Virus record (IMG/VR): IMGVR_UViG_2721755657_000001 | Coordinates: 1-34,071 of that record | DNA: 34,071 bases | DNA from: a virus | Taxonomy: Duplodnaviria; Heunggongvirae; Uroviricota; Caudoviricetes | Reading direction: 5' to 3' (one strand) | Part shown: in pieces, positions 4,173 through 27,024 of the stretch | Position numbering within the stretch: position 1 is the first letter of the stretch | Layout: each line of letters opens with the position of its first letter | The notes under the pieces: generated by a model | Databases searched by the model: none | Seen by the model: only the letters and a program-made list of their open reading frames with translations | What the model was told of the DNA's origin: nothing | Position numbers and translations under genes: made by a program

Positions 4173-6447
4173 AGCCTCCGGGCGTTTTGTCCCTCCGGCA
4201 GCATTTGCCGCAGGCACCGGTAAGACGTTTACCGGTGCTTATGCATGGAACGCGCCACGCGAGGCTGTCGGGCGCGAAAGACCCCTTACACGTGACGAGA
4301 TGCGTCAGGTGCAAGGTGTTTTATCCACGATTAACCGCCTGCCTTACTTTTTGCGTTCGCTGTTTACTTCACGCTATGACTACATCCGGCGCAATAAAAG
4401 CCCGGTACACGGGTTTTATTTCCTCACATCCACTTTTCAGCGTCGTTTATGGCCGCGCATTGAGCGTGTGAATCAGCGCCATGAAATGAACACCGATGCG
4501 TCGTTGCTGTTTCTGGCAGAGCGCGACAAGTATGCGCGCCTGCCGGGAATGAATGACAGAGAGCTGAAAAAGTTTGCCGCCCGTATCTCATCGCTGCTTT
4601 TCATGATGTATGAGGAACTCTGCGATGCATGGGTTGATGCGCATGGCGAGAAAGAATCGCTGTTTACGGATGAGGCGCAGGCTCACCTCTATGGTCATGT
4701 TGCTGGTGCTGCTCGTGCTTTCAATATTTCCCCTCTCTACTGGAAAAAATACCGTAAAGGACAGATGACCACGAGGCAGGCATATTCTGCCATTGCCCGC
4801 CTGTTTAACGATGAGTGGTGGACTCATCAGCTTAAAGGCCAGCGTATGCGCTGGCATGAGGCGTTACTGATAGCTGTCGGGGAGGTTAATAAAGACCGTT
4901 CTCCTTATGCCAGTAAACATGCCATTCGTGATGTGCGTGCGCGCCGCCAGGCAAATCTGGAATTTCTTAAATCGTGTGACCTTGAAAACAGGGAAACCAG
5001 CGAGCGCATCGACCTTATCAGTAAGGTGATGGGCAGTATTTCTAATCCTGAAATTCGCCGGATGGAGCTGATGAACACCATTGCCGGTATTGAGCGTTAC
5101 GCCGCCGCAGAGGGTGATGTGGGGATGTTTATCACGCTGACCACGCCGTCAAAGTATCACCCGACACGTCAGGTCGGAAAAGGCGAAAGTAAAACCGTCC
5201 AGCTAAATCATGGCTGGAACGATGAGGCATTTAATCCAAAGGATGCGCAGCGTTATCTCTGCCGTATCTGGAGCCTGATGCGCACGGCATTCAAGGATAA
5301 TGATTTACAGGTCTACGGTTTGCGTGTCGTCGAGCCACACCACGACGGAACGCCGCACTGGCATATGATGCTTTTTTGTAATCCACGCCAGCGTAACCAG
5401 ATTATCGAAATCATGCGTCGCTATGCGCTCAAAGAGGATGGCGACGAAAGAGGAGCCGCGCGAAACCGTTTTCAGGCAAAACATCTTAACCGGGGCGGTG
5501 CTGCGGGGTATATCGCGAAATACATCTCAAAAAACATCGATGGCTATGCACTGGATGGTCAGCTCGATAACGATACCGGCAGGCCGCTGAAAGATACTGC
5601 TGCGGCTGTTACCGCATGGGCGTCAACGTGGCGCATTCCGCAATTTAAAACGGTTGGTCTGCCGACAATGGGGGCTTACCGTGAACTACGCAAATTGCCT
5701 CGCGGCGTCAGCATTGCTGATGAGTTTGACGAGCGCGTCGAGGCTGCACGCGCCGCTGCAGACAGTGGTGATTTTGCGTTGTATATCAGCGCGCAGGGCG
5801 GGGCAAATGTCCCGCGCGATTGTCAGACTGTCAGGGTCGCCCGTAGCCCGTCGGATGACGTTAACGAGTACGAGGAAGAAGTCGAGAGAGTGGTCGGCAT
5901 TTACGCGCCGCATCTCGGCGCGCGTCATATTCATATCACCAGAACGACGGACTGGCGCATTGTGCCGAAAGTGCCGGTCGTTGAGCCTTTGACGTTAAAA
6001 AGCGGCATCGCCGCGCCTCGGAGTCCTGTCAATAACTGTGGAAAGCTCTCCGGTGGTGATACTTCGTTACCGGTTCCCACACCTTCTGAACATGCCGCAG
6101 CCGTGCTTAATCTGGTTGATGACGGTGTTATCGAATGGAATGAGCCAGAGGTCGTGAGGGCGCTCAGAGGTGCATTAAAACACGGACTGAGAACACCAAA
6201 TCGTCAGCAGAGAAACAGAAGCCTGTTAAAACCACATGAAATAGCGCCATCGGCCAGACTGACCCGGTCGGAACGAACGCAAATTACCCGTATCCGCGTT
6301 GACCTTGCTCAGAACGGTATCAGGCCGCAGCGATGGGAGATTGAGGCGCTGGCGCGTGGGGCAACCGTAAATTATGACGGGAAAAAATTCACGTATCCGG
6401 TCGCTGATGAGTGGCCGGGATTCTCAACAGTAATGGAGTGGACATGA
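4162..6447 (+). CDS. A: Replication initiation protein A (rolling-circle nickase)
   Basis: 761-aa product from the ATG at 4162 (MAVKASGRFVPP...), within ORF 4120..6447. Sequence recalled as P2 gpA. Confidence 0.9.
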   Translation: MAVKASGRFVPPAAFAAGTGKTFTGAYAWNAPREAVGRERPLTRDEMRQVQGVLSTINRLPYFLRSLFTSRYDYIRRNKSPVHGFYFLTSTFQRRLWPRIERVNQRHEMNTDASLLFLAERDKYARLPGMNDRELKKFAARISSLLFMMYEELCDAWVDAHGEKESLFTDEAQAHLYGHVAGAARAFNISPLYWKKYRKGQMTTRQAYSAIARLFNDEWWTHQLKGQRMRWHEALLIAVGEVNKDRSPYASKHAIRDVRARRQANLEFLKSCDLENRETSERIDLISKVMGSISNPEIRRMELMNTIAGIERYAAAEGDVGMFITLTTPSKYHPTRQVGKGESKTVQLNHGWNDEAFNPKDAQRYLCRIWSLMRTAFKDNDLQVYGLRVVEPHHDGTPHWHMMLFCNPRQRNQIIEIMRRYALKEDGDERGAARNRFQAKHLNRGGAAGYIAKYISKNIDGYALDGQLDNDTGRPLKDTAAAVTAWASTWRIPQFKTVGLPTMGAYRELRKLPRGVSIADEFDERVEAARAAADSGDFALYISAQGGANVPRDCQTVRVARSPSDDVNEYEEEVERVVGIYAPHLGARHIHITRTTDWRIVPKVPVVEPLTLKSGIAAPRSPVNNCGKLSGGDTSLPVPTPSEHAAAVLNLVDDGVIEWNEPEVVRALRGALKHGLRTPNRQQRNRSLLKPHEIAPSARLTRSERTQITRIRVDLAQNGIRPQRWEIEALARGATVNYDGKKFTYPVADEWPGFSTVMEWT

Positions 6448-6899
6448 TGGCAAAAATTCACGAGGTAAAGCTGCACGCAAAATATTTCGACCTTGTGCTG
6501 GAAGGAAAGAAACGCGCAGAGTTTCGGAAAAATGACCGTAATTATGAGCGCGGGGACACGTTGATTTTGCATGAATGGGTGCAGGGTGTGTATACGGGGC
6601 GAAAGGTTGAAGCCCGGATAACAGATGTTACTGACCTGTCAGACTGGCTGGAAGATTATGTCTTGCTAAGTATTGAGCGGCTTAATACAGGCGCATATGA
6701 GATTGTGAACTGGAAAGAACTTAGTGAGCGTGGTCTGGTATTCAGAATTAATCATGAAATTATGCATCAGCTCGGCCTTGCTGTTATGTATGAATCAGAG
6801 ACGGGGATGTCTGGCGGGGCAATGGTAGCCACGGATGGAGCATGGAACTATTCAGATGAACAGATGGAGCGTGCAAAGCAAAACGGGTGGCTTGGATAA
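6444..6899 (+). CDS. ASCH/PUA-like (DUF3850-like) domain protein, translationally coupled to A
   Basis: ATG at 6444 overlaps the A stop (ATGA). The N-terminal ~80 aa (KIHEVKLHAKYFDLVLEGKKRAEFRKNDRNYERGDTLILHE) resemble the ASCH GxKxxExR-type fold. Domain call is from motif reading only. Confidence 0.5.
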   Translation: MMAKIHEVKLHAKYFDLVLEGKKRAEFRKNDRNYERGDTLILHEWVQGVYTGRKVEARITDVTDLSDWLEDYVLLSIERLNTGAYEIVNWKELSERGLVFRINHEIMHQLGLAVMYESETGMSGGAMVATDGAWNYSDEQMERAKQNGWLG

Positions 6900-7105
6900 T
6901 GCACAGAATACCAGGCGAGATACCGCACCATAAAACTAAAAATATCAAGCTGATGGCTATTGTTCAGCGTTTACAGCGGATTATGGTCAACGAAAATCTG
7001 ACGCCCGATGAGCTGGTCGGGTGTGCCGAAATAGTACGGGATAATTACGGGCGGCTTAACTATATCGGTCAGTCCAGAGTTGCGCCACCACCACGCAGAC
7101 GATAG
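6899..7105 (+). CDS. Small hypothetical protein (68 aa), coupled to upstream gene
   Basis: ATG at 6899 in a TAATG overlap with the upstream stop. Arg/Pro-rich C-terminus. Backbone-like base composition. Confidence 0.4.
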   Translation: MHRIPGEIPHHKTKNIKLMAIVQRLQRIMVNENLTPDELVGCAEIVRDNYGRLNYIGQSRVAPPPRRR

Positions 7106-7328
7106 AGAACGCCGCCAGTTGTGAAACTTGTTTTCAGGGCTGGCGGGGTTGAACAACGAGCGAAGCGAGACGTTAGTTGACAGACATATTTTTACTACGT
7201 TGGTGCTGGTTTTTGACGGTTGAAAGGAGTTAGGTTGGAGAGCTAACAACTTACAAATATTCAAAAGTAAGCATCCTGTTGCTAACATGAGGTTGATTTT
7301 TTATGTGGATGATGCAAAAAGGATAGCT

Positions 7329-8060
7329 ATGGATACTATAATCGCTTTTCTATCACTCGCTTTTTTCGTTGCTTTCTTCATCGGGCTAATCAAGCCATCA
7401 CTGGTGCGAATGCCAAACCGCAAACGTGCAAGTGCGGTTTATCTCGGAGGAGGTTTTGTATTGAGCATAATTGGTTCAATACTCTATCCAACAGAAAAAA
7501 GCCAGCCAGTTGCTAAAACTGAAACATCAACCGTTGCAGAACACAAAGTCCAAAAAACATTCGAATATGGTGAAAAAACACTCAAGGAATATCGGAACGA
7601 GTCAAAGAAAACACGACACGATATTGTGAATAGTTACATTGATTTTAAGGAAGTTCCAGCCACCGCGTCAGATGCGTTTTATGCCTGCATGAGTGAGTAT
7701 ACATTTACCAAAGATGATGAGTTGAAACTCGGTGATGTTCTTGGGTGGTGCTTTAATGATTATGAAAATGACCCGAGTTCACTAAACAATAAAATCAATC
7801 TTGATACATTTCAGAGTAATTTTAGTGGTTGGGATGGTTCTTATCGTCCATTGGAAAAACTAATTAAAGATAATATGAACGATGATTCATCTTATAAACA
7901 TGTGTCAACGGTATATCATCTGGTTTTGAATAAAGACCCGCATGCCATTGTGAAAACCACGTTTCGCGGAACTAATGCTTATGGCGGAGTAGTGAAACAG
8001 ACGATTGCTGCGCGTGTCAATGTAGAAACAGGTGAGGTTGTATCAATTATAAGTGAGTGA
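7329..8060 (+). CDS. Cargo gene 1 in the A-cos (tin/old) slot: membrane-anchored protein of unknown function
   Basis: ATG at 7329 with AAGGA SD 5 nt upstream (alternative ATG at 7287 has no SD). Two N-terminal hydrophobic segments (IIAFLSLAFFVAFFIGLI, VYLGGGFVLSIIGSILY) followed by a ~190-aa soluble domain. Visibly AT-rich relative to flanking phage genes. Confidence 0.65.
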   Translation: MDTIIAFLSLAFFVAFFIGLIKPSLVRMPNRKRASAVYLGGGFVLSIIGSILYPTEKSQPVAKTETSTVAEHKVQKTFEYGEKTLKEYRNESKKTRHDIVNSYIDFKEVPATASDAFYACMSEYTFTKDDELKLGDVLGWCFNDYENDPSSLNNKINLDTFQSNFSGWDGSYRPLEKLIKDNMNDDSSYKHVSTVYHLVLNKDPHAIVKTTFRGTNAYGGVVKQTIAARVNVETGEVVSIISE

Positions 8061-8158
8061 ACTGTGCCAGAATGATAAAGATGCCAGCATTTATGCTGGC
8101 AATCATAAAAATAGTGACTAGCAAAAATTGGTGTCTGGTTTTAATGTGAGATTAGAAA

Positions 8159-8857
8159 ATGAAGAGATGTAAATATATTTTAAGAGGTTTGTTGCTGAAG
8201 TTTAAAAGTATAAGTTCTATGCATTTGTTATTTGTTTTAATAACGGCTTGTCTATTCTTTTTTATAGGGTGTTACGTGGGTTATAGTGGTATTGGTTTGA
8301 ATGGTGACACTAAATACCAATTAATTACAATACCTTTTTTGACCATGTTGGGTACTTGGGTTTCTGGGGTGGGAGCATTTTCTGCTGTTGCGACATCATT
8401 GTTGTTGGCACACCGTTCGCTAAAGGAAAATTCAGAAGAAATTGCTATTCGATATAGCATGGTGTTAATACCATCAATGTACTTACCTAGCACTACAGAT
8501 ACAGCAATATCAATAACCATAACAAACAAAAGAAAAGTAAGGAGTAATATTCAATCGGTTGTTTTGCAATTTTCTAATAATAAAGCAATGAATATATGGG
8601 TAAACCCCGGGACGCTTATCTCTGGCAAGTTACCGCATGTTTTAGAAGACTATGGTGATATATTGACGCTTATAATTCCAGAGAGCATTACCGCATCAGT
8701 AACTGATGAGGGGTTCGTAAAAGAATGTCAGGGGAATACTCTTGGAGAAGGTAGCGTCGTAGTTCACACAACGACAAAAACATTTGTAAAAAAATTAACA
8801 TTACCTCAAATTAAGCCATTTAATGATAAATTTAAGTCTGTATTGACGAAGCCGTAA
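8159..8857 (+). CDS. Cargo gene 2 in the A-cos slot: membrane/lipoprotein-like protein of unknown function
   Basis: 232-aa ORF. Basic N-terminus, then hydrophobic stretches (LLFVLITACLFFFIGC, possible lipobox FIGC; second stretch AFSAVATSLLLA), then a ~140-aa soluble C-terminal region. AT-rich. 98 bp downstream of cargo gene 1 on the same strand. Confidence 0.6.
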   Translation: MKRCKYILRGLLLKFKSISSMHLLFVLITACLFFFIGCYVGYSGIGLNGDTKYQLITIPFLTMLGTWVSGVGAFSAVATSLLLAHRSLKENSEEIAIRYSMVLIPSMYLPSTTDTAISITITNKRKVRSNIQSVVLQFSNNKAMNIWVNPGTLISGKLPHVLEDYGDILTLIIPESITASVTDEGFVKECQGNTLGEGSVVVHTTTKTFVKKLTLPQIKPFNDKFKSVLTKP

Positions 8858-17904: not shown

Positions 17905-18349
17905 GTTTAAGCGTTTTGAAGACCGGCTGGCGGGACTTATTGAATCGCTGTCACCGTCAGGGCGTCGGCGACTGAGCGCCGAACTGGCGAAACGTCTGCG
18001 TCAGAGTCAGCAGCGTCGGGTGATGGCACAGAAAGCCCCGGACGGCACACCCTACGCGCCACGCCAGCAGCAGAGCGCCAGAAAAAAGACCGGTCGTGTT
18101 AAGCGAAAAATGTTTGCGAAACTTATCACCAGTCGTTTTTTGCATATCCGCGCCAGCCCGGAACAGGCATCAATGGAATTTTACGGCGGGAAGTCGCCGA
18201 AAATCGCCAGTGTGCATCAGTTCGGTCTGTCGGAAGAAACCCGGAAAAACGGTAAGAAAATTGATTATCCGGCGCGTCCTCTGCTCGGCTTTACCGGTGA
18301 GGATGTGCAGATGATTGAAGAGATTATCCTGGCTCACCTTGAGCGTTAG
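17897..18349 (+). CDS. S: Tail completion protein S
   Basis: 150-aa ORF overlapping the R stop. P2 gpS position. Confidence 0.85.
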   Translation: MNEFKRFEDRLAGLIESLSPSGRRRLSAELAKRLRQSQQRRVMAQKAPDGTPYAPRQQQSARKKTGRVKRKMFAKLITSRFLHIRASPEQASMEFYGGKSPKIASVHQFGLSEETRKNGKKIDYPARPLLGFTGEDVQMIEEIILAHLER

Positions 18350-18378
18350 TTTTATCCAGGCAGAGGCTGATGCGCAAT

Positions 18379-18415
18379 TAAACATTGAGCGGCCATGCTG
18401 GTCGCTCAATGTTTA
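18379..18415. terminator. Perfect 13-bp stem-loop between S and the inverted cargo gene (candidate bidirectional terminator)
   Basis: taaacattgagcg (18379..18391) and cgctcaatgttta (18403..18415) are exact reverse complements with an 11-nt loop. Lies between the convergent stops of S (18349) and the cargo gene (18421). No strong U-tract on either side. Confidence 0.45.
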
Positions 18416-18420
18416 GAGGT

Positions 18421-19206
18421 TTATGAGTGATTTTTATTTGATGCTTTGTATTCTACAACCTTCTTATTGGCGTAAAGGAATTTTGTATATGACAGGAATA
18501 TAACCAGACCTGAAATGAAATAGATGAGGGATATTATTAATAATGCTTTTTTTTGGCTGTTATTATCTTTAATCTCCTGACTTAACCATTCGGAGTCCTC
18601 CTCGTTTAGCTGTAAGAGCTTATTGCAGGCGATCTCAGGAAGTGTGTCTTTTATAAATACGTTTCGTAGCCTCTTGCAATCGGCAAGGCTATAAGTTTTA
18701 TTGAATTCAACTGTTTTATTGTTGAAGGATAAAAGAACTTTGTCACTATAAACATAGTACATCATATTTTTATATGGTATGCCTATGGCATCTCTTACTA
18801 TAGCGGATTGTTTGTTGTGTATATAACATGCGAAGAGAATATAAATAACACTGGACAGAATTACAATTATTGTTTTAATTATGTGTGGTGGTTTTGTTAT
18901 GTCACCCCAGAAGCGAGTAAGAAAAAAATACGATGTTTTTAGTTTTCCATCAATCAGCCCCTGCTGTATCATTCTCACATCTTCGATGCCTGATACATTG
19001 ATTCCGTTAATTATTTTAAATAGTTGAATGTCGCGCCATTTTTTGTCGAGCATTTTTAACTTTCTGTCTGAATACTCAAAATTGAAATGATGTGCAATAA
19101 ACCTCATAAGATTACTTTTACCAAAGGTAATAAATGTTAATGCTATTAATAAAAATAGATACAAAGAGATAAACCACCACGCATTAGTCACATTATCACT
19201 GAACAT
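18421..19206 (-). CDS. Cargo gene in the S-V slot: membrane protein with three hydrophobic segments, unknown function
   Basis: 261-aa ORF on the strand opposite to the late operons, with GAGGAG SD 6-7 nt upstream of its ATG. Hydrophobic segments near residues 9-28, 110-128 and 222-240. Strongly AT-rich. Confidence 0.7.
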   Translation of the reverse strand: MFSDNVTNAWWFISLYLFLLIALTFITFGKSNLMRFIAHHFNFEYSDRKLKMLDKKWRDIQLFKIINGINVSGIEDVRMIQQGLIDGKLKTSYFFLTRFWGDITKPPHIIKTIIVILSSVIYILFACYIHNKQSAIVRDAIGIPYKNMMYYVYSDKVLLSFNNKTVEFNKTYSLADCKRLRNVFIKDTLPEIACNKLLQLNEEDSEWLSQEIKDNNSQKKALLIISLIYFISGLVIFLSYTKFLYANKKVVEYKASNKNHS

Positions 19207-19289
19207 TACGCTCTCCTCGAATGTTGTATGGTCGTTCTACAAATGAATCCAGATAGCATAACTTTTATATATTGTGCAATCTCACACGC

Positions 19290-19925
19290 ATGAACACTCT
19301 CGCAAATATTCAGGAACTCGCGCGCGCACTGCGCAACATGATTCGTACCGGCCTTGTCGTCGAAACCAACCTTAAAGCCGGTCGCTGCCGTGTGCAGACC
19401 GGTGGCATGTGCACTGACTGGCTTCAGTGGCTGACCCATCGTGCCGGACGTTCGCGCACATGGTGGGCACCTTCCGTGGGGGAACAGGTGCTGATTCTGG
19501 CTGTGGGCGGTGAACTCGACACGGCGTTCGTTCTGCCGGGGATTTATTCCGGCGATAACCCCGCGCCGTCTGCGTCGGCGGATGCCCTGCATATCCGTTT
19601 CCCTGACGGGGCGGTGATTGAGTATGAACCCGAAACCAGTGCACTCACGGTAAGCGGAATTAAAACGGTCAGCGTGACGGCTTCTGATTCTGTTACTGCC
19701 ACGGTGCCGGTGGTCATGGTGAAAGCATCAACCCGTGTCACCCTGGACACACCGGAGGTGGTCTGCACTAACAGACTGATTACCGGCACGCTGGAAGTGC
19801 AGAAGGGCGGGACGATGCGCGGCAACATTGAACACACCGGCGGTGAACTCTCATCAAACGGTAAGGTACTGCATACCCACAAACACCCAGGAGACAGCGG
19901 CGGCACAACCGGGAGTCCTCTATGA
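19290..19925 (+). CDS. V: Baseplate spike/assembly protein V
   Basis: 211-aa product from the ATG at 19290 (MNTLANIQELARALRNM...), within ORF 19272..19925. Confidence 0.9.
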   Translation: MNTLANIQELARALRNMIRTGLVVETNLKAGRCRVQTGGMCTDWLQWLTHRAGRSRTWWAPSVGEQVLILAVGGELDTAFVLPGIYSGDNPAPSASADALHIRFPDGAVIEYEPETSALTVSGIKTVSVTASDSVTATVPVVMVKASTRVTLDTPEVVCTNRLITGTLEVQKGGTMRGNIEHTGGELSSNGKVLHTHKHPGDSGGTTGSPL

Positions 19926-20269
19926 CAGCACGTTATCTCGGAATGAATCGCAGTGATGGCCTGACTGTCACTGACCTTGAGCATATCAGCCAGAGTATCG
20001 GCGATATCCTGCGCACACCGGTCGGCTCACGGGTGATGCGTCGTGATTACGGCTCGTTGCTGGCATCAATGATTGACCAGCCGCAGACCCCGGCGCTTGA
20101 GTTGCAGATTAAGGTCGCCTGTTACATGGCGGTGCTGAAATGGGAACCCCGCGTCACCCTGTCATCCGTCACCACTGAGCGCAGTTTTGACGGGCGAATG
20201 ACGGTCACGTTAACCGGCCAGCACAACGACACCGGCCAGCCACTTTCGTTAACCATCCCTGTGAGTTGA
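19922..20269 (+). CDS. W: Baseplate wedge protein W (gp25-like)
   Basis: 115-aa ORF overlapping the V stop. P2 gpW position. Confidence 0.88.
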   Translation: MTARYLGMNRSDGLTVTDLEHISQSIGDILRTPVGSRVMRRDYGSLLASMIDQPQTPALELQIKVACYMAVLKWEPRVTLSSVTTERSFDGRMTVTLTGQHNDTGQPLSLTIPVS

Positions 20270-20273
20270 AACC

Positions 20274-21182
20274 ATGCCGATTATCGACCTGAACCAGCTA
20301 CCCGCACCGGATGTGGTCGAGGAGCTGGACTTTGAAACCATTCTCGCTGAACGCAAGGCGACACTGATTTCTCTTTACCCGGAAGACCAGCAGGAGGCGG
20401 TCGCCCGTACCCTGACACTGGAATCCGAGCCTCTCGTCAAACTGCTGGAGGAAAATGCTTATCGTGAGCTTATCTGGCGTCAGCGTGTGAATGAGGCCGC
20501 ACGGGCGGTGATGCTGGCCTGTGCCGCCGGTAATGACCTTGATGTGATTGGTGCCAATTACAACACCACGCGCCTGATTATTACTCCGGCAGATGATTCG
20601 ACCATCCCGCCGACACCGGCAGTGATGGAATCTGACACGGATTATCGTCTGCGTATTCAGCAGGCGTTTGAAGGCTTAAGCGTCGCCGGGTCGGTGGGAG
20701 CCTATCAGTATCATGGTCGCAGTGCCGACGGGCGTGTCGCGGATATCTCTGTCACCAGTCCGTCTCCGGCCTGCGTCACCATCTCCGTGCTGTCACGTGA
20801 AAATAACGGTGTGGCATCCGAAGATCTGCTGGCGGCGGTGCGTAACGCCCTTAATGGCGAGGACGTCAGGCCGGTGGCCGACCGCGTGACCGTGCAGTCT
20901 GCCGCCATTGTTGAATACCAGATAAACGCCACGCTTTACCTTTACCCTGGTCCCGAAAGCGAACCCATCCGCGCTGCCGCCGTGAAAAAACTGGAAGCGT
21001 ATATCACGGCACAGCACCGGCTGGGGCGTGACATCCGTCTGTCTGCCATTTATGCCGCTTTGCATGTGGAAGGTGTGCAGCGTGTCGAACTGGCTGCACC
21101 ACTGGCCGACATCGTGCTCAACAGTACGCAGGCGTCTTTCTGTACTGAATACCGCGTCGTGACCGGAGGCTCGGATGAGTGA
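20274..21182 (+). CDS. J: Baseplate assembly protein J
   Basis: 302-aa ORF in the P2 gpJ position. Confidence 0.9.
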   Translation: MPIIDLNQLPAPDVVEELDFETILAERKATLISLYPEDQQEAVARTLTLESEPLVKLLEENAYRELIWRQRVNEAARAVMLACAAGNDLDVIGANYNTTRLIITPADDSTIPPTPAVMESDTDYRLRIQQAFEGLSVAGSVGAYQYHGRSADGRVADISVTSPSPACVTISVLSRENNGVASEDLLAAVRNALNGEDVRPVADRVTVQSAAIVEYQINATLYLYPGPESEPIRAAAVKKLEAYITAQHRLGRDIRLSAIYAALHVEGVQRVELAAPLADIVLNSTQASFCTEYRVVTGGSDE

Positions 21183-21705
21183 TTCGCGACTGCTGCCGAC
21201 CGGCTCATCACCGCTTGAGGTCGCCGCCGCAAAAGCCTGTGCGGAAATTGAAAAAACGCCGGTCAGTATTCGTGAGCTGTGGAACCCGGATACCTGTCCG
21301 GCAAATTTGCTGCCGTGGCTGGCGTGGGCGTTTTCGGTCGACAGGTGGGATGAGAAGTGGCCGGAAGCGACAAAACGCGCCGTTATCCGCGATGCGTATT
21401 TCATCCACTGTCATAAAGGCACTATAGGTGCAATCCGGCGTGTGGTGGAGCCGCTCGGCTATCTCATCAACGTGACGGAGTGGTGGGAAAACAGTGACCC
21501 GCCCGGCACCTTCCGGCTTGATATTGGTGTACTGGAAAGTGGCATCACAGAGGCAATGTATCAGGAAATGGAACGGCTGATTGCTGATGCCAAACCTGCA
21601 AGCCGTCACCTTATTGGCCTGAACATTACCCGGGACATTCCCGGCTACCTGTTCGCCGGTGGTGTGGCTTACGACGGCGATGTAATTACGGTTTACCCCG
21701 GATAA
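21175..21705 (+). CDS. I: Baseplate/tail protein I
   Basis: 176-aa ORF overlapping the J end. P2 gpI position. Confidence 0.88.
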   Translation: MSDSRLLPTGSSPLEVAAAKACAEIEKTPVSIRELWNPDTCPANLLPWLAWAFSVDRWDEKWPEATKRAVIRDAYFIHCHKGTIGAIRRVVEPLGYLINVTEWWENSDPPGTFRLDIGVLESGITEAMYQEMERLIADAKPASRHLIGLNITRDIPGYLFAGGVAYDGDVITVYPG

Positions 21706-21715
21706 GTGAGGAATA

Positions 21716-24034
21716 ATGAGCACAAAATTCAAAACCGTTATCACCACTGCCGGTGCAGCAAAGCTGGCAGCGGCAACCGCGCCGGGAGGGCGGAAGGTCA
21801 ACATTACCACGATGGCCGTCGGGGATGGCGGTGGTAAATTGCCTGTCCCGGATGCCGGACAGACCGGGCTTATCCATGAAGTCTGGCGACATGCGCTGAA
21901 CAAAATCAGCCAGGACAAACGAAACAGTAATTATATTATCGCAGAGCTGGTTATTCCGCCGGAGGTGGGCGGTTTCTGGATGCGTGAGCTTGGCCTGTAC
22001 GATGATGCGGGAACGTTAATTGCCGTGGCGAACATGGCCGAAAGTTATAAGCCAGCCCTTGCCGAAGGCTCAGGACGTTCGCAGACCTGCCGCATGGTCA
22101 TTATCGTCAGCAGTGTGGCCTCAGTGGATCTGACCATCGACACCACAACGGTGATGGCGACGCAGGATTACGTTGATGACAAAATTGCAGAGCACGAACA
22201 GTCACGACGTCACCCGGACGCCTCGCTGACCGCAAAAGGTTTTACTCAGTTAAGCAATGCGACCAACAGCACGTCTGAAACACTGGCCGCAACGCCGAAA
22301 GCGGTTAAGGCCGCATATGACCTTGCTAACGGGAAATATACCGCACAGGACGCTACCACAGCGCGAAAAGGTCTTGTCCAGCTAAGTAGTGCGACCAACA
22401 GCATGTCTGAAACGCTCGCCGCAACACCAAAAGCGGTTAAGGCAGCGTATGACCTTGCTAACGGGAAATACACTGCACAGGACGCCACCACAGCGCGAAA
22501 AGGTCTTGTCCAGCTCAGTAGCGTCACCAACAGCGATTCTGAAACGCTTGCGGCAACGCCAAAGGCGGTTAAGACAGCGTATGACCTTGCTAACGGGAAA
22601 TACACTGCACAGGATGCCACCACCGCGCGAAAAGGTCTTGTCCAGCTCAGTAGCGCCACCAACAGCGATTCTGAAACGCTGGCTGCAACATCAAAAGCGG
22701 TAAAGTCTGCCTATGACAATGCTGAAAAACGTCTTCAGAAAGATCAGAACGGTGCGGATATTCCGGGAAAGGATACCTTCACGAAAAATATCGGTGCCTG
22801 TCGTGCTTATAGCGGCGCTTTGAGCACTGAAGCCGGAAACTGGACAACCGCTCAGTTTATTGAATGGCTGGATTCCCGTGGTGCATTTAATCATCCGTAC
22901 TGGATGTGCAAAGGCTCCTGGTCATATGCAAATAACAAAATCATTACGGATACCGGATGTGGTGATATCCACCTGGCTGGTTGTGTCGTCGAGGTCATGG
23001 GAACTAAATCTGCAATCACTATCCGAGTGACCACGCCGACAACATCAAGCGGTGGCGGTACAACCAGCGCGCAATTCACTTACATAAATCATGGGGACGG
23101 CTACTCCCCCGGCTGGCGTCGTGACTGGAATCGTCAGGGCGACGCAATGACCGGAACGATTAATCAGGATGGCGGAAGCCAGAATGCCTATATGTCTACG
23201 GCCTTATGTTCAGGCACCAGAGGCGGCAAAAAATATCTCAGAAAGTTTCGTGGTGGAGAAGGAGACACTATCTGGCATGAAACAGTACAGGGCGGGGTAG
23301 TTCGCTGGGCGACTGGTAATACTGATGCTCAGGAAGAATTATCACTCAGCTCCGCTTATGGTCTCCGTTCAAGAGGTGAGATTACATCAAGCAGTGCTAA
23401 TGGTCTGCGCATTGCTTATGGCAATTATGGATTCTTTATCAGGAATGATGGCAGCAGCACTTATTTTATGTTGACTAAATCAGGTGACAGATTAGGCACT
23501 TATAATAATTTAAGACCACTGATTATAAATGATGCCACGGGTGCTGTATCAATGGGGCATGGCCTGAGTGTTACAGGTGATATTGTCTCAAGCACCAAAG
23601 TACGTGCCGGTAGCGGGAAAAAGTTCACGGTCAGCAGCAGCAATACATCCACGAAGGAAGCCGCATTCAATTTGTGGGGAAACTCAAGTCGTCCTGTGGT
23701 GGCTGAATTAGGTGATGATGCAGGCTGGCATTTTTACAGTCAGAGAAATACAGATAACAGCATCACTTTTGCTGTTAACGGGCAGGTATCACCATCTAAC
23801 TATGGAAACTTTGATTCACGCTATGTCCGGGATATCCGGCTTGGTGGTGCTGCCACATACAAACCTGCGAACAATGGTATGACATGGACACATCAGGCAC
23901 CGTCCGGGTGTGTATATTCCGGCATTATTGTTCAGGATACCGGCTCAAACTCTGCCGATAACATTGGTGGCGTATATTACAGACCGGTGCAGAAATACAT
24001 TAACGGGACTTGGTATAACGTGGCGCAGGTATAA
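21716..24034 (+). CDS. H: Tail fibre protein H
   Basis: 772-aa ORF with an internal 44-aa tandem-repeat region and a Gly/Ser/Thr-rich C-terminal region. Followed by the tail-fibre assembly gene. Confidence 0.9.
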   Translation: MSTKFKTVITTAGAAKLAAATAPGGRKVNITTMAVGDGGGKLPVPDAGQTGLIHEVWRHALNKISQDKRNSNYIIAELVIPPEVGGFWMRELGLYDDAGTLIAVANMAESYKPALAEGSGRSQTCRMVIIVSSVASVDLTIDTTTVMATQDYVDDKIAEHEQSRRHPDASLTAKGFTQLSNATNSTSETLAATPKAVKAAYDLANGKYTAQDATTARKGLVQLSSATNSMSETLAATPKAVKAAYDLANGKYTAQDATTARKGLVQLSSVTNSDSETLAATPKAVKTAYDLANGKYTAQDATTARKGLVQLSSATNSDSETLAATSKAVKSAYDNAEKRLQKDQNGADIPGKDTFTKNIGACRAYSGALSTEAGNWTTAQFIEWLDSRGAFNHPYWMCKGSWSYANNKIITDTGCGDIHLAGCVVEVMGTKSAITIRVTTPTTSSGGGTTSAQFTYINHGDGYSPGWRRDWNRQGDAMTGTINQDGGSQNAYMSTALCSGTRGGKKYLRKFRGGEGDTIWHETVQGGVVRWATGNTDAQEELSLSSAYGLRSRGEITSSSANGLRIAYGNYGFFIRNDGSSTYFMLTKSGDRLGTYNNLRPLIINDATGAVSMGHGLSVTGDIVSSTKVRAGSGKKFTVSSSNTSTKEAAFNLWGNSSRPVVAELGDDAGWHFYSQRNTDNSITFAVNGQVSPSNYGNFDSRYVRDIRLGGAATYKPANNGMTWTHQAPSGCVYSGIIVQDTGSNSADNIGGVYYRPVQKYINGTWYNVAQV
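22235..22735 (+). repeat. 132-bp tandem repeat (about 3.8 copies) inside H, encoding a 44-aa repeat
   Basis: Unit starts at about 22238, 22370, 22502 and 22634 (KG[FL][TV]QLS..TNS.SETLAATPKAVK.AYDLANGKYTAQDATTAR). Copies are near-identical at the DNA level. Confidence 0.85.
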
Positions 24035-24037
24035 TTT

Positions 24038-24565
24038 ATGCAGCATTTGATAAATATAACGGCAGGTAATCCAAAAACGGTTGAACAATATCAATTGACA
24101 AAAGACTTTGATGTTGTCTGGTTTTTTTCAGAAGATGGTAAGAACTGGTACGAAGAACAAAAGTATTTTGCTGATGACACGCTAAAAATAGCGTACGACA
24201 AAGATAATATCATCCGCTATGTGGAAAAGGATGTGACAGCTATCAGACCGGATGGATTAAGTGTGGTTGAAGTGGCGGATATTACTGCTAACCGACGGGC
24301 GGACATTTCAGGGGGCTGGATGTTTAAGGGCGGCAAAGTGATTAAACGCATTTATACGGCAGAGGAATTGCAGCAGCAGGCAGAAAACCGGAAAGCCAGA
24401 CTTCTTGCAGATGCTGAATCCGTGATTTTGCCGCTGGAGCGCGCTGTCAGGCTGAATATGGCTACAGAGGAGGAGCGCACACGACTGGAAGCATGGGAAC
24501 GCTACAGCGTTCTGGTCAGTCGTGTGGATCCTGCAAATCCTGAATGGCCGGAAATGCCGCAATAA
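24038..24565 (+). CDS. G: Tail fibre assembly chaperone G
   Basis: 175-aa ORF immediately downstream of H. P2 gpG position. Confidence 0.88.
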
Positions 24566-25000
24566 GTTGTATGAGCTCTGGTGTGAGCTTACATATCTAT
24601 GGCACAGAGTAAAGACTAATCTGACAGTCCGCTCTGTGCCAGGAGCAGCCATTGCTAAGTCCATCCTGTATTGTGCAGGTCAGCTCGTTTTTAAAGAGTC
24701 CGGCCATCATCTTACTGGTACAGACACCATATACTTTGTGACGGTCAGGCTACATATGCACAACTCAACTTATTCATCTATTTTTTGCTTTAGCATGTCA
24801 GTGTTGCTTTCTCGTCGGCGGGTGAGCGGTGACCTGACCTGTCGATAAAGGAACGTAGCACGTTTTATGCAACACCCGCATGCGGCAGAAAATTATTGCC
24901 GAACGTTTACCCCTGTCAACAAGCTTTACTTTCTGAGGCGCGCCAGCCCGCGAGGAAAACAATCTGAACATCAAACAATTAATGACACAAGAAATACGAT

Positions 25001-25027
25001 TAAAGATTTTTTTGTGCATGCCGATAG
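25001..25027 (+). promoter_or_regulatory. Near-consensus sigma-28 (FliA) promoter upstream of the FlxA-like gene
   Basis: TAAAGATT (25001..25008), 11-nt spacer, GCCGATAG (25020..25027), against consensus TAAAGTTT-N11-GCCGATAA (14/16). Followed by GGAG SD and the ATG at 25051. Confidence 0.7.
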
Positions 25028-25050
25028 TGCTTTTTTAAAAGGAGAAATCT

Positions 25051-25383
25051 ATGTCTGTCACAATTCAGGGAAATACCTCAACCGTTATTTCAAACAACTC
25101 CGCCCCAGAAGGAACATCAGAAATAGCCAAAATCACAAGACAAATTCAGGTGCTGACTGAAAAGCTTGGGAAAATCTCATCGGAAGAGGGGATGACGACA
25201 CAGCAGAAAAAAGAATTAGCTGCATTGGTACAGAAGCAAATTGAAAGCCTCAGGGCTCAACTGGAGCAGTTGTTAAGGCAGCAGGCAGAGAAAAAGAATA
25301 AAGACGCGACAGTTCAGCCTGATAAAAAAGAAGAGAAAAAAGACGATACAAATACCGCTGGCACCATTGATATTTACGTCTAA
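25051..25383 (+). CDS. flxA: FlxA-like small charged coiled-coil protein (cargo in the G-FI slot)
   Basis: 110-aa ORF with strong SD (AAGGAG), Gln/Lys/Glu-rich coiled-coil-like sequence, its own sigma-28-type promoter and terminator. Size, composition and FliA-type promoter match my recollection of E. coli FlxA; identity is recall-based. Confidence 0.6.
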   Translation: MSVTIQGNTSTVISNNSAPEGTSEIAKITRQIQVLTEKLGKISSEEGMTTQQKKELAALVQKQIESLRAQLEQLLRQQAEKKNKDATVQPDKKEEKKDDTNTAGTIDIYV

Positions 25384-25397
25384 GTGACAGCCGTATT

Positions 25398-25420
25398 GTG
25401 GCCCTCATCGGGCCACTTTT
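25398..25420 (+). terminator. Intrinsic terminator of the FlxA-like gene
   Basis: GTGGCCC-tcatc-GGGCCAC followed by TTTT, 15 nt after the stop codon. Confidence 0.75.
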
Positions 25421-25833
25421 CGCCATCAGCCTTTTCTTTAAAGACATATTATCTTTGTATCATTTCTGATAGTTAACATTACAAGATATAAGTAATGGAC
25501 GCACTCCCAATTAGTCTATTTAAATCGCCACGAGTTTAACTGACAACCCATGATCAATTATGAATTGCAACTATTTCTGTAGTCACTTTTGTGGGGACAG
25601 TCCACAAAACTGCCAACTTCCGCTTCTCGCTCAAAGCAGACTGTCAGATTTGATAGCGTTTGGGCTATGTAAATTGTCAGTTGGAAAATGAGTGAGTGCA
25701 AATCATGGCAGGCTGGCGGATTACCCGCCTTTTCTTTGTCTGTTGTTTCATCCCCTGACCAGCCAGGTCAAATAGCGTCTCATGCTCTGCACAACAGAAA
25801 ATAGTTGCACCCATTAACCACGGAGTTAAACGG

Positions 25834-27024
25834 ATGAGTGACTATCATCATGGCGTGCAGGTGCTGGAGATTAACGACGGCACCCGCGTCATTTCCACCG
25901 TATCCACTGCCATTGTCGGCATGGTCTGCACGGCCAGCGATGCGGATGCGGAAACCTTTCCCCTCAATAAACCTGTGCTGATTACCAATGTGCAGAGCGC
26001 AATTGCAAAGGCCGGTAAAAAAGGCACGCTGGCGGCGTCGCTGCAGGCCATCGCCGACCAGTCAAAACCGGTCACCGTTGTTGTGCGCGTGGAAGACGGC
26101 ACCGGCGACGACGAGGAAACGAAACTTGCGCAGACCGTTTCCAATATCATCGGCACCACCGACGAAAACGGTCAGTACACCGGACTGAAAGCCCTGCTGG
26201 CGGCGGAGTCAGTAACCGGTGTTAAACCGCGTATTCTCGGCGTGCCGGGACTGGACACCAAAGAGGTGGCTGTTGCACTGGCATCAGTCTGTCAGAAGCT
26301 GCGCGCTTTCGGGTATATCAGCGCATGGGGCTGTAAAACTATTTCCGAGGTGAAAGCCTACCGCCAGAATTTCAGCCAGCGTGAGCTGATGGTCATCTGG
26401 CCGGATTTCCTCGCATGGGATACGGTCAGCAGCACCACCGCCACCGCGTATGCCACCGCCCGTGCGCTGGGGCTGCGTGCTAAAATCGACCAGGAGCAGG
26501 GCTGGCATAAAACGTTGTCCAACGTCGGGGTAAATGGTGTTACCGGCATCAGCGCATCTGTATTCTGGGATTTGCAGGAGTCCGGCACCGATGCTGACCT
26601 GCTTAACGAGTCAGGCGTCACTACGCTGATTCGCCGCGACGGTTTCCGCTTCTGGGGTAACCGTACCTGCTCTGATGACCCGCTGTTCCTCTTTGAAAAC
26701 TATACCCGCACCGCGCAGGTGCTGGCCGACACGATGGCTGAGGCGCACATGTGGGCGGTGGACAAGCCCATCACCGCAACGCTGATTCGCGACATCGTTG
26801 ACGGCATCAATGCCAAATTTCGTGAGCTGAAAACAAACGGCTATATCGTGGATGCGACCTGCTGGTTCAGCGAAGAATCCAACGATGCGGAAACCCTCAA
26901 GGCCGGAAAACTGTATATCGACTATGACTATACCCCGGTGCCTCCTCTTGAAAACCTGACCCTGCGCCAGCGTATTACCGATAAATACCTGGCAAATCTG
27001 GTCACCTCGGTTAACAGCAATTAA
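25834..27024 (+). CDS. FI: Tail sheath protein FI
   Basis: 396-aa ORF with GGAG SD. P2 FI position. Confidence 0.92.
   Translation: MSDYHHGVQVLEINDGTRVISTVSTAIVGMVCTASDADAETFPLNKPVLITNVQSAIAKAGKKGTLAASLQAIADQSKPVTVVVRVEDGTGDDEETKLAQTVSNIIGTTDENGQYTGLKALLAAESVTGVKPRILGVPGLDTKEVAVALASVCQKLRAFGYISAWGCKTISEVKAYRQNFSQRELMVIWPDFLAWDTVSSTTATAYATARALGLRAKIDQEQGWHKTLSNVGVNGVTGISASVFWDLQESGTDADLLNESGVTTLIRRDGFRFWGNRTCSDDPLFLFENYTRTAQVLADTMAEAHMWAVDKPITATLIRDIVDGINAKFRELKTNGYIVDATCWFSEESNDAETLKAGKLYIDYDYTPVPPLENLTLRQRITDKYLANLVTSVNSN

Follow-up and report, generated by a model that had tools for sequence, protein, structure and literature searches.

Which gene occupies the spacer between the tail fibre assembly gene G and the sheath gene FI of a P2-like prophage, what drives its expression and how did it come to be there? 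These questions are raised by IMG/VR virus record IMGVR_UViG_2721755657_000001, a stretch of 34,071 nucleotides (hereafter the window) which comprises a P2-like (Peduovirus) prophage together with the adjoining host gene yegQ. A preliminary description, made from the letters alone, had pointed in this spacer to a promoter of the flagellar sigma factor FliA (sigma-28), a Shine-Dalgarno sequence, an open reading frame (ORF) resembling flxA and an intrinsic terminator; all four are present, at the positions listed below. In our judgement, which we hold with good confidence, the spacer is the variable Z hotspot, now holding a flxA cassette which has its own class-3 promoter, ribosome binding site and terminator and which was probably swapped in from a Qin-type prophage.

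The cargo of the G-FI spacer is flxA

The spacer is 1268 bp long, from the stop of G at 24565 to the start of FI at 25834. Its bounds and the parts of its cargo are as follows.

24038-24565, tail fibre assembly gene G (PF02413), left bound of the spacer
24567..24848, plus strand, 'ydfV-like' ORF of 93 aa with a TTG start, hypothetical in the annotation of strain LR-51
24642..25626, plus strand, imported cassette (about 985 bp) matching the ydfV-flxA region of the K-12 Qin prophage at 99% identity
25001..25027, plus strand, sigma-28 (FliA) class-3 promoter, -35 TAAAGATT, N11, -10 GCCGATAG, identical to the mapped K-12 flxA promoter
25040-25044, plus strand, Shine-Dalgarno sequence AGGAG, read from the sequence, 6 nt ahead of the ATG at 25051
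25051..25383, plus strand, flxA coding sequence of 110 aa, identified by Pfam FlxA (PF14282), K-12 alignment, AlphaFold2 model and family alignment
25398-25420, plus strand, flxA intrinsic terminator GTGGCCC-TCATC-GGGCCAC followed by TTTT, with a 7-bp GC-rich stem and a 5-nt loop
25834-27024, sheath gene FI (PF04984/PF17482), right bound of the spacer

The resemblance to FlxA noticed earlier proved to be identity. The product of the ORF at 25051-25383 matches PF14282 with 53.2 bits (cut-off 26.3) over residues 7-101 and aligns without gaps to FlxA of Escherichia coli K-12, 107 of 110 residues being the same. The three substitutions are M56L, W68R and E84K, and both R68 and K84 of the window protein are the state found in diverged homologues. 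When the flxA region of the K-12 Qin prophage was aligned to the spacer, about 1 kb of the latter (24627-25641) was 99% identical to the Qin segment annotated ydfV-flxA. As judged by these alignments, the ORF is FlxA itself and not just a FlxA-like protein. Its sole match in PHROG, family 11044 (phrog_11044), covers the full length and has no known function. The terminator, with a predicted free energy of -17.3 kcal/mol (z -2.55), moves with the cassette and is 99% identical in K-12.

The second reading frame of the cassette is of a different kind. The 5' end of the 'ydfV-like' ORF lies outside the cassette, in the backbone, and differs in each context; the frame has no match in Pfam, PHROG or PADLOC, and the 'ydfV' segment is missing from a flxA variant of 87% identity. 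We judged it unlikely to be a real gene, given its start outside the cassette, its dependence on context and the lack of a family match. It is probably a non-coding remnant, as is the 3' tail of the cassette. On the minus strand, antisense to this frame and directed leftward in the cassette, lies a sigma-70-like promoter (TTGACA-16-AATAAT, 11/12; 24892-24919). In the 87% variant its hexamers are split by a 10-bp insertion, and so it is probably not essential.

flxA has been known since 1997 as a FliA-dependent gene without an assigned function. In 2024 it was still among the uncharacterised genes of K-12 (PMC11551758). The AlphaFold2 model, for which 17 of 20 aligned homologues served as input, predicts a helical hairpin (residues 24-42 and 50-86, predicted local distance difference test 80-90) with both ends disordered. 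A Foldseek search of the PDB with this model gave no match below E = 0.5, a sequence-profile search of the PDB returned coiled-coil noise only, and PADLOC matched no defence family to FlxA.

The promoter is that of K-12 flxA

The promoter at 25001-25027 is the sole match to the FliA consensus at three or fewer mismatches in the 34-kb window; it has two, and 0.22 matches are expected by chance. The 28-mer TAAAGATTTTTTTGTGCATGCCGATAGT of the window is identical to the K-12 flxA promoter. There, FliA binding was detected as a chromatin immunoprecipitation peak, and mutation of fliA lowers flxA expression from 280 to 2 units (PMC4183435). In an array study, flxA changed -28.4-fold in a fliA deletion and +8.2-fold on over-production of FliA (PMC1935009). 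The gene also co-varies with flagellar genes in unrelated transcriptomes. Thus the near-consensus FliA promoter first read from the letters is, base for base, one that FliA binds and that depends on FliA in K-12. Control by FliA is experimentally established for this exact promoter sequence in K-12, and by identity of sequence it would be expected in the window prophage as well. The view that a prophage gene would stand under the motility sigma factor is supported by this, the concept itself being no novelty in view of Qin flxA in K-12.

flxA is foreign to the P2 backbone and very rare in the Z slot

That the G-FI spacer is the Z position follows from two GenBank 'proviral Z-region' records (AJ512680, AJ512676), which match the final 30 nt of G at one end and the initial 30 nt of FI at the other. 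G+C content is low in the spacer (0.39-0.47) compared with FI (0.58). We take G and FI to belong to different P2 late operons (V-G and F, respectively), with the slot falling between them. On this established P2 biology, the placement of the gene 'inside the tail operon' in the preliminary description has to be corrected.

A search of 5426 complete E. coli genomes located the flxA unit (24990-25430) in 1168 of them, nearly always in lambdoid prophages, and the P2-type region upstream of FI in 1684, at 1944 places. The G|cassette and cassette|FI junctions were each found in a single one of these genomes, that of strain LR-51. A pattern specific to the right junction had no match in IMG/VR and none in JGI metagenome contigs; none of the FlxA-encoding IMG/VR stretches (80 of 85 considered) had a P2 context; and a low-stringency search of 50,697 GenBank phage records still yielded a single carrier of the cargo, PhiR42_1, a lambdoid from ECOR13. 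A scan of genome contigs by exact peptide patterns gave 5 loci, a number that says little on distribution. An 'empty' Qin site, with the relB flank joined to the ydfW flank, was seen in none of the 5426 genomes.

The prophage of LR-51 is distinct from that of the window: their cargo between A and the portal gene is not the same, and the remainder shows 96-99% identity. The P2::flxA arrangement is therefore real, with two independent sightings. Within an 8.4-kb block (18249-26702), which includes a reverse-strand ORF, genes V-W-J-I-H-G, the flxA slot and most of FI, the two prophages differ by 1 mismatch, whereas the flanks are about 2% diverged. Such a pattern indicates that the tail-fibre module and the flxA slot were recently transferred together by recombination. 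The arrangement thus appears to have been carried already from one P2-like backbone to another, along with the tail-fibre block, through homologous recombination.

A sister prophage in an O177:H21 strain has the same tail fibre protein and a different Z cargo, a 251-aa ORF on the opposite strand. Along with the occurrence of both junctions in just 1 of 5426 genomes, this contradicts the possibility that the cassette is backbone common to all P2-like phages. As far as the comparison of sequences goes, the cassette is foreign to the P2 backbone and nearly identical to the Qin-type lambdoid copy.

Two inverted 24-bp palindromes flank the Z slot

In the GenBank records of P2-EC46 and P2-EC30, the Z cargo is annotated as lying between a left and a right inverted repeat. 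Both repeats are found in the window, where the borders of the slot are made up as follows.

24566..24626, plus strand, outer, backbone portion of the left inverted repeat; its last 7 nt (24620-24626) are TCTGACA
24600..24641, plus strand, hairpin just 3' of G (inverted repeat I10), 11-bp stem TGGCACAGAG / CTCTGTGCCA, no U tract after it
24627..24650, plus strand, L core, an imperfect 24-bp palindrome: outer arm GTCCGCTC, spacer TGTGCCAG, degenerate inner arm GAGCAGCC
25618..25641, minus strand, R core, a 24-bp palindrome: outer arm GTCTGCTT, spacer TGAGCGAG, inner arm AAGCGGAA
25642..25833, plus strand, P2 backbone with the conserved region upstream of FI, starting with the outer part of the right inverted repeat (TGTCAGA, 25642-25648)
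25715-25739, plus strand, terminator-like GGCGG-ATTAC-CCGCC followed by TTTTCTTTGT, found in the backbone by the terminator scan

The left outer part matches the left repeat annotated in P2-EC46 and P2-EC30 at 95% identity and is unchanged in the O177:H21 sister prophage; on the right, P2, Wphi and further Peduovirus genomes, as well as hundreds of E. coli prophages, share the backbone segment at 91-98% identity. The two borders face each other as inverted repeat I1 of the window (24618-24646 / 25622-25650). The hairpin at 24600-24641, whose 3' arm overlaps the L core, folds with -26.2 kcal/mol (z -4.09), and none of 200 shuffled sequences folded as well. An Rfam scan of 24000-26300 gave nothing relevant.

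From 97 copies in IMG/VR, collected with a search pattern that left the inner arm unconstrained, we derived a core consensus: TCTGACA, then outer arm GTCYGCTY, centre TGWGCNAR and inner arm RAGCGGAC. The inner arm is conserved in these copies despite its position on the cargo side and the unrelated cargos, and 77 of the 97 have arms that complement each other at six or more of the eight positions. L-type cores (centre TGTGCCAG) adjoin G in 45 of 46 cases, the remaining one having neither G nor FI nearby. Inverted R-type cores (centre TGAGCGAG) adjoin FI in 35 of 51 cases and never G, with neither gene nearby in the other 16, which brings the cores near neither gene to 17 of 97. Swaps of side between the two types were never seen, and paired cores stand 1.0-5.9 kb apart. 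Evidently, the bounds of the cassette are a pair of 24-bp palindromic cores in inverted orientation, which border the Z slot no matter what cargo it holds.

We also considered the cores as intrinsic terminators. For most of them this was rejected: five or more T in the next 9 nt follow 10 of the 97 copies, and the L core of the window has none. Outside any P2-like prophage, an isolated perfect TCTGACA plus 24-bp core was observed in E. coli Z0117EC0032 (locus L006, 4005-4035), where its neighbours are a LysR gene and a GTPase / Ag43 island.

The same cassette recurs in other prophages, with junctions that map to the core centres

A 1015-bp module, 99% identical throughout, was found in at least five flank contexts, with end points agreeing within 4 nt:

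between relBE and ydfW in Qin-type lambdoid prophages
in the P2 G-FI slot
between yfdR and int in a lambdoid prophage at yjjG
beside a tyrosine recombinase and a capsid gene
beside a DUF262 protein

In four of these the module starts with GTCYGC and ends with GCRGAC or ACAGAC, and the fifth match starts 4 nt further in. A transposon or miniature inverted-repeat transposable element was rejected as an explanation; the five contexts show no direct repeats or target duplication, and the module contains no transposase.

The slot at yjjG (L088, L089, L090) holds, depending on the strain, the flxA cassette, a DUF6602 protein or two ORFs of unknown nature. L- and R-type cores flank the flxA cassette and the DUF6602 cargo, and the two-ORF cargo has only a degenerate L-type core. 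By its border elements, which are those of the P2 Z slot, the yfdR-int slot looks like a second hotspot. Copies of GGCACAGA also occur upstream of the L core in this otherwise unrelated slot (L088).

Upon comparison of 66 full-length copies, variable sites were found to be concentrated in the terminal 10 nt or so at both ends. These terminal variants track the context and not the cassette; where a given slot holds different cargo, its own cores carry the same terminal sequence. Between the window, the O177:H21 sister prophage and the K-12/Qin copies, the left crossover maps between 24634 and 24642; the right one, placed against the sister prophage and the Qin copies, maps between 25626 and 25628. 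Both fall inside the 8-bp core centres, and the yfdR-int slot shows the same pattern. In its interior the cassette differs from the nearest Qin haplotype at 3 sites only, making a Qin-type prophage the likeliest donor. Outer arms that stay, inner arms that travel, unlike centres and a fixed orientation form the pattern expected of cassette exchange between heterotypic sites. The junctions therefore suggest a site-specific-like exchange, probably with a Qin-type donor.

The FlxA family probably belongs to the flagellar regulon

In an alignment of 20 FlxA homologues, the N terminus is short and conserved and is followed by a stretch of low complexity, two helices with a GMTxxQKKE turn between them, and a low-complexity C-terminal tail ending in conserved IDIYV. 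In each homologue lineage examined (26-87% identity), a sigma-28-type promoter precedes the ATG by 22-32 nt, with changes in the spacer and not in the -35 and -10 elements. Examples are TAAAGATA-N11-GCCGATAG, TAAATTTC-N11-GCCGATAT, TCAAGTCG-N11-GCCGATAA and TAAAGATT-N11-GACGATAA. Shuffled 160-nt upstream regions matched the scores of these promoters at a frequency of 0.0004-0.024.

The four most distant homologues (P0143, P0144, P0151 and P0155; 26-37% identity) occupy one conserved chromosomal locus, free of phages and islands, in the order yfeCD-gltX-[flxA-like]-yfeR-yfeH-ypeB-ligA-zipA. Distant homologues at the gltX-yfeR site, each with a sigma-28-type promoter, were seen on metagenome and genome contigs (L223, L224, L228 and L230). 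E. coli K-12 is not known to carry a gene there.

The relatives in other Enterobacterales are chromosomal and have promoters of this kind, which makes flxA most plausibly a host gene of the flagellar regulon that phages appear to have captured, promoter included. The presence of a sigma-28 promoter in every lineage examined, together with the core-chromosome homologues at gltX-yfeR, places FlxA in the flagellar regulon proper. FlxA would then be an old class-3 member of this regulon in Enterobacterales which prophage cassettes supply in E. coli. Promoter and chromosomal locus, taken at the level of sequence, favour an accessory flagellar or motility role and argue against one in exclusion or defence.

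Discussion

How may the cassette have reached its place, and what would it do there? We propose that it entered by a double exchange, L recombining with L and R with R, each time by a single crossover within the 8-bp core centre, the donor most likely being a Qin-type prophage in a co-lysogen. Between P2-like phages it would then spread by ordinary homologous recombination, together with the tail-fibre block. In the lysogen, FliA-RNA polymerase would transcribe flxA only while the host builds flagella, the phage late activator Ogr not being needed. The product would be a 12-kDa helical-hairpin protein with disordered tails, making a protein-protein contact somewhere in the flagellar or motility programme. 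A bolder extension, which we offer tentatively and do not expect to hold in full, is that the 24-bp cores are the sites of a site-specific exchange system shuttling promoter-bearing cassettes between unrelated prophage hotspots (P2-like Z, lambdoid Qin, yfdR-int and others), the flxA cassette being one caught in the act as it brings in a host gene of the flagellar regulon, the product of which would give the lysogen a phenotype coupled to flagellation.

Several points weigh against this account, the first group of them concerning movement. Crossovers can be mapped only within the short stretch shared by donor and recipient, so that their position in the spacer is partly forced, and the mapping rests on one or two informative bases per side. 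The left inner arm of the flxA cassette is degenerate (GAGCAGCC), and the direction from Qin to P2 rests on abundance and on the 3 interior differences. An enzyme for core-centred exchange is only proposed: no recombinase gene was found in the cassette, and the P2 integrase is a candidate by proximity only. The cores are not known to resemble hix/gix, dif or attC sites. Appreciable weight, short of an even chance, goes to movement without a recombinase, by microhomology-mediated joining or by template switching at a stalled hairpin. Such a process would fit the mere 7-15 nt of identity shared at each joint, the predicted ability of the cores to form hairpins and the lack of target duplication, besides the missing recombinase gene. 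It accounts less well for inner arms (RAGCGGAC) that, though located on the cargo side, are conserved across many unrelated cargos, for the fixed sides of L-type and R-type cores, for end points within 4 nt across five contexts, and for crossovers in the 8-bp centre at both sides and in more than one slot. One recent survey of P2 hotspots (2026; one of PMC9122126 and PMC13586616) states that the recombination process at these hotspots remains to be elucidated, and neither survey mentions the Z-region repeats.

Expression and function raise further points of this sort. The terminator scan predicted no plus-strand intrinsic terminator between the G stop (24565) and flxA; the earliest such sites after G are flxA's own (25398-25420) and then that in the backbone (25715-25739). 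Late V-G transcripts (from P_V) could therefore run into flxA, and its expression may not be wholly uncoupled from the late programme, beside FliA-driven expression in the lysogen. The earlier claim that expression follows the flagellated state rather than the late programme stands in its first half, the promoter being the FliA-dependent one of K-12, and is left in doubt in its second. We think it unlikely that flxA is expressed mainly in lytic growth, as the tail of the late V-W-J-I-H-G transcript. The open path from G, together with a T-rich tail after only 10 of the 97 cores, speaks for this; against it, transcripts may be halted or processed at the strong hairpin (24600-24641), an intact FliA promoter is present, which suffices in K-12, and the two modes are compatible with each other. 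As to function, the predicted FlxA structure does not constrain it, being a helical hairpin of generic type for which no informative structural neighbour turned up. The preliminary description named Z as an exclusion locus, and the position is indeed that of P2 Z. FlxA might replace fun(Z) as a superinfection-exclusion or defence factor gated by flagellation, acting for example against flagellotropic phages only when their receptor is present. Expression is linked to FliA, the Z slot and similar slots usually house defence or exclusion genes, DUF6602 and DUF262 proteins are alternative or neighbouring cargo in other cassette slots, and P2 hotspots are documented as defence reservoirs (PMC9122126, PMC13586616). 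Yet flxA and flagella are absent from both of these papers, no PADLOC family matched, the sole PHROG match is without known function, the PDB yielded nothing informative by sequence or fold, and the arrangement is extremely rare among P2-like phages. The role is weakened as well by distant homologues at the fixed housekeeping locus gltX-yfeR rather than in islands, and we consider it very improbable. The cassette could also be a neutral or transient passenger, brought by a chance swap at a recombination-prone hotspot and without a selected role for the P2-like phage. Its occurrence in the window and LR-51 only, by way of one recent 8.4-kb recombination block and with no other matches in IMG/VR, JGI metagenomes or GenBank phages, is in keeping with this, as is the non-coding debris that makes up part of it. 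Gene, promoter and terminator are nevertheless all intact, two of the three changes from K-12 FlxA (R68 and K84) are as in diverged homologues, and the block has already moved between two diverged P2-like backbones. We regard a mere passenger as possible, though not the expected outcome.

Relation to known systems

With flxA of the K-12 Qin prophage (b1566) the window shares the gene, the 28-nt FliA promoter, the terminator and the cassette of about 1 kb including 'ydfV'. The surroundings differ: the window copy sits in the G-FI Z slot of a P2-like myovirus, the Qin copy in a lambdoid prophage between relBE and ydfW, and the terminal 10 nt or so at each end of the window cassette are of P2 type. 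Cargo of the fun(Z)/Z region of P2 (AJ512676, AJ512680) occupies the same G-FI slot between the same annotated inverted repeats, has its own promoter and likewise varies between otherwise near-identical phages. That known cargo serves exclusion or conversion and has sigma-70 signals, whereas the window carries a gene of a sigma-28 host regulon that is 99% identical to lambdoid prophage copies. The Z-region repeats were reportedly first described by Nilsson et al. in 2004; here they are taken from the GenBank annotations.

Phage morons and the defence hotspots of P2 and P4 resemble the cassette in being autonomous units of low G+C content that lie between late operons and are rapidly swapped, but flxA uses an alternative host sigma factor and has no defence signature in PADLOC. 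Recombinase-mediated cassette exchange of the lox/FRT type and integron cassettes offer another parallel: two inverted palindromic sites with 8-bp arms and unlike 8-bp centres, outer arms that stay with the backbone, inner arms that go with the cargo, and a fixed orientation. In the flxA cassette, by contrast, the mechanism is read from junctions and the recombinase is only hypothesised.

flxA, its regulation and its link to a prophage are already known from K-12, and the Z slot and its repeats from work on P2. What is new is flxA as a cargo of the Z slot, where it is very rare. New as well are the circulation of one cassette among P2-like and lambdoid hotspots, with crossovers that seem to lie in the centres of conserved 24-bp palindromes, and the family-wide conservation of a predicted sigma-28 promoter, including at a core chromosomal locus. 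A discrete 1-kb flxA cassette travels among at least five prophage contexts, and junctions in palindrome centres provide a concrete, testable handle on the swapping of cargo at P2 hotspots.

Other features of the window

Besides yegQ and the Z slot, the window contains the genes for integrase, replication (A), portal, terminase, capsid, lysis and baseplate, followed by tail fibre gene H, G and FI. Two of them are referred to by position:

583-1596, integrase (P2 int)
21716-24034, tail fibre H

The other P2 hotspot, between A and the portal gene (6411-8857), holds a DUF3850/ASCH plus DUF7415 protein at 6411-6899 and two ORFs, 7287-8060 and 8159-8857, that matched nothing in Pfam or PADLOC; in LR-51 the place is taken by a HEPN-domain protein. 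On the minus strand at 18421-19206, inside the 8.4-kb block and between the lysis/tail-completion genes and baseplate gene V, lies a 261-aa ORF that belongs to no family. Within H, tandem repeats of about 131 nt (44 aa; motif TAQDATTARKGLVQLSSATNS.SETLAATPKAVK.AYDLANGKY) extend over 22231-22717.

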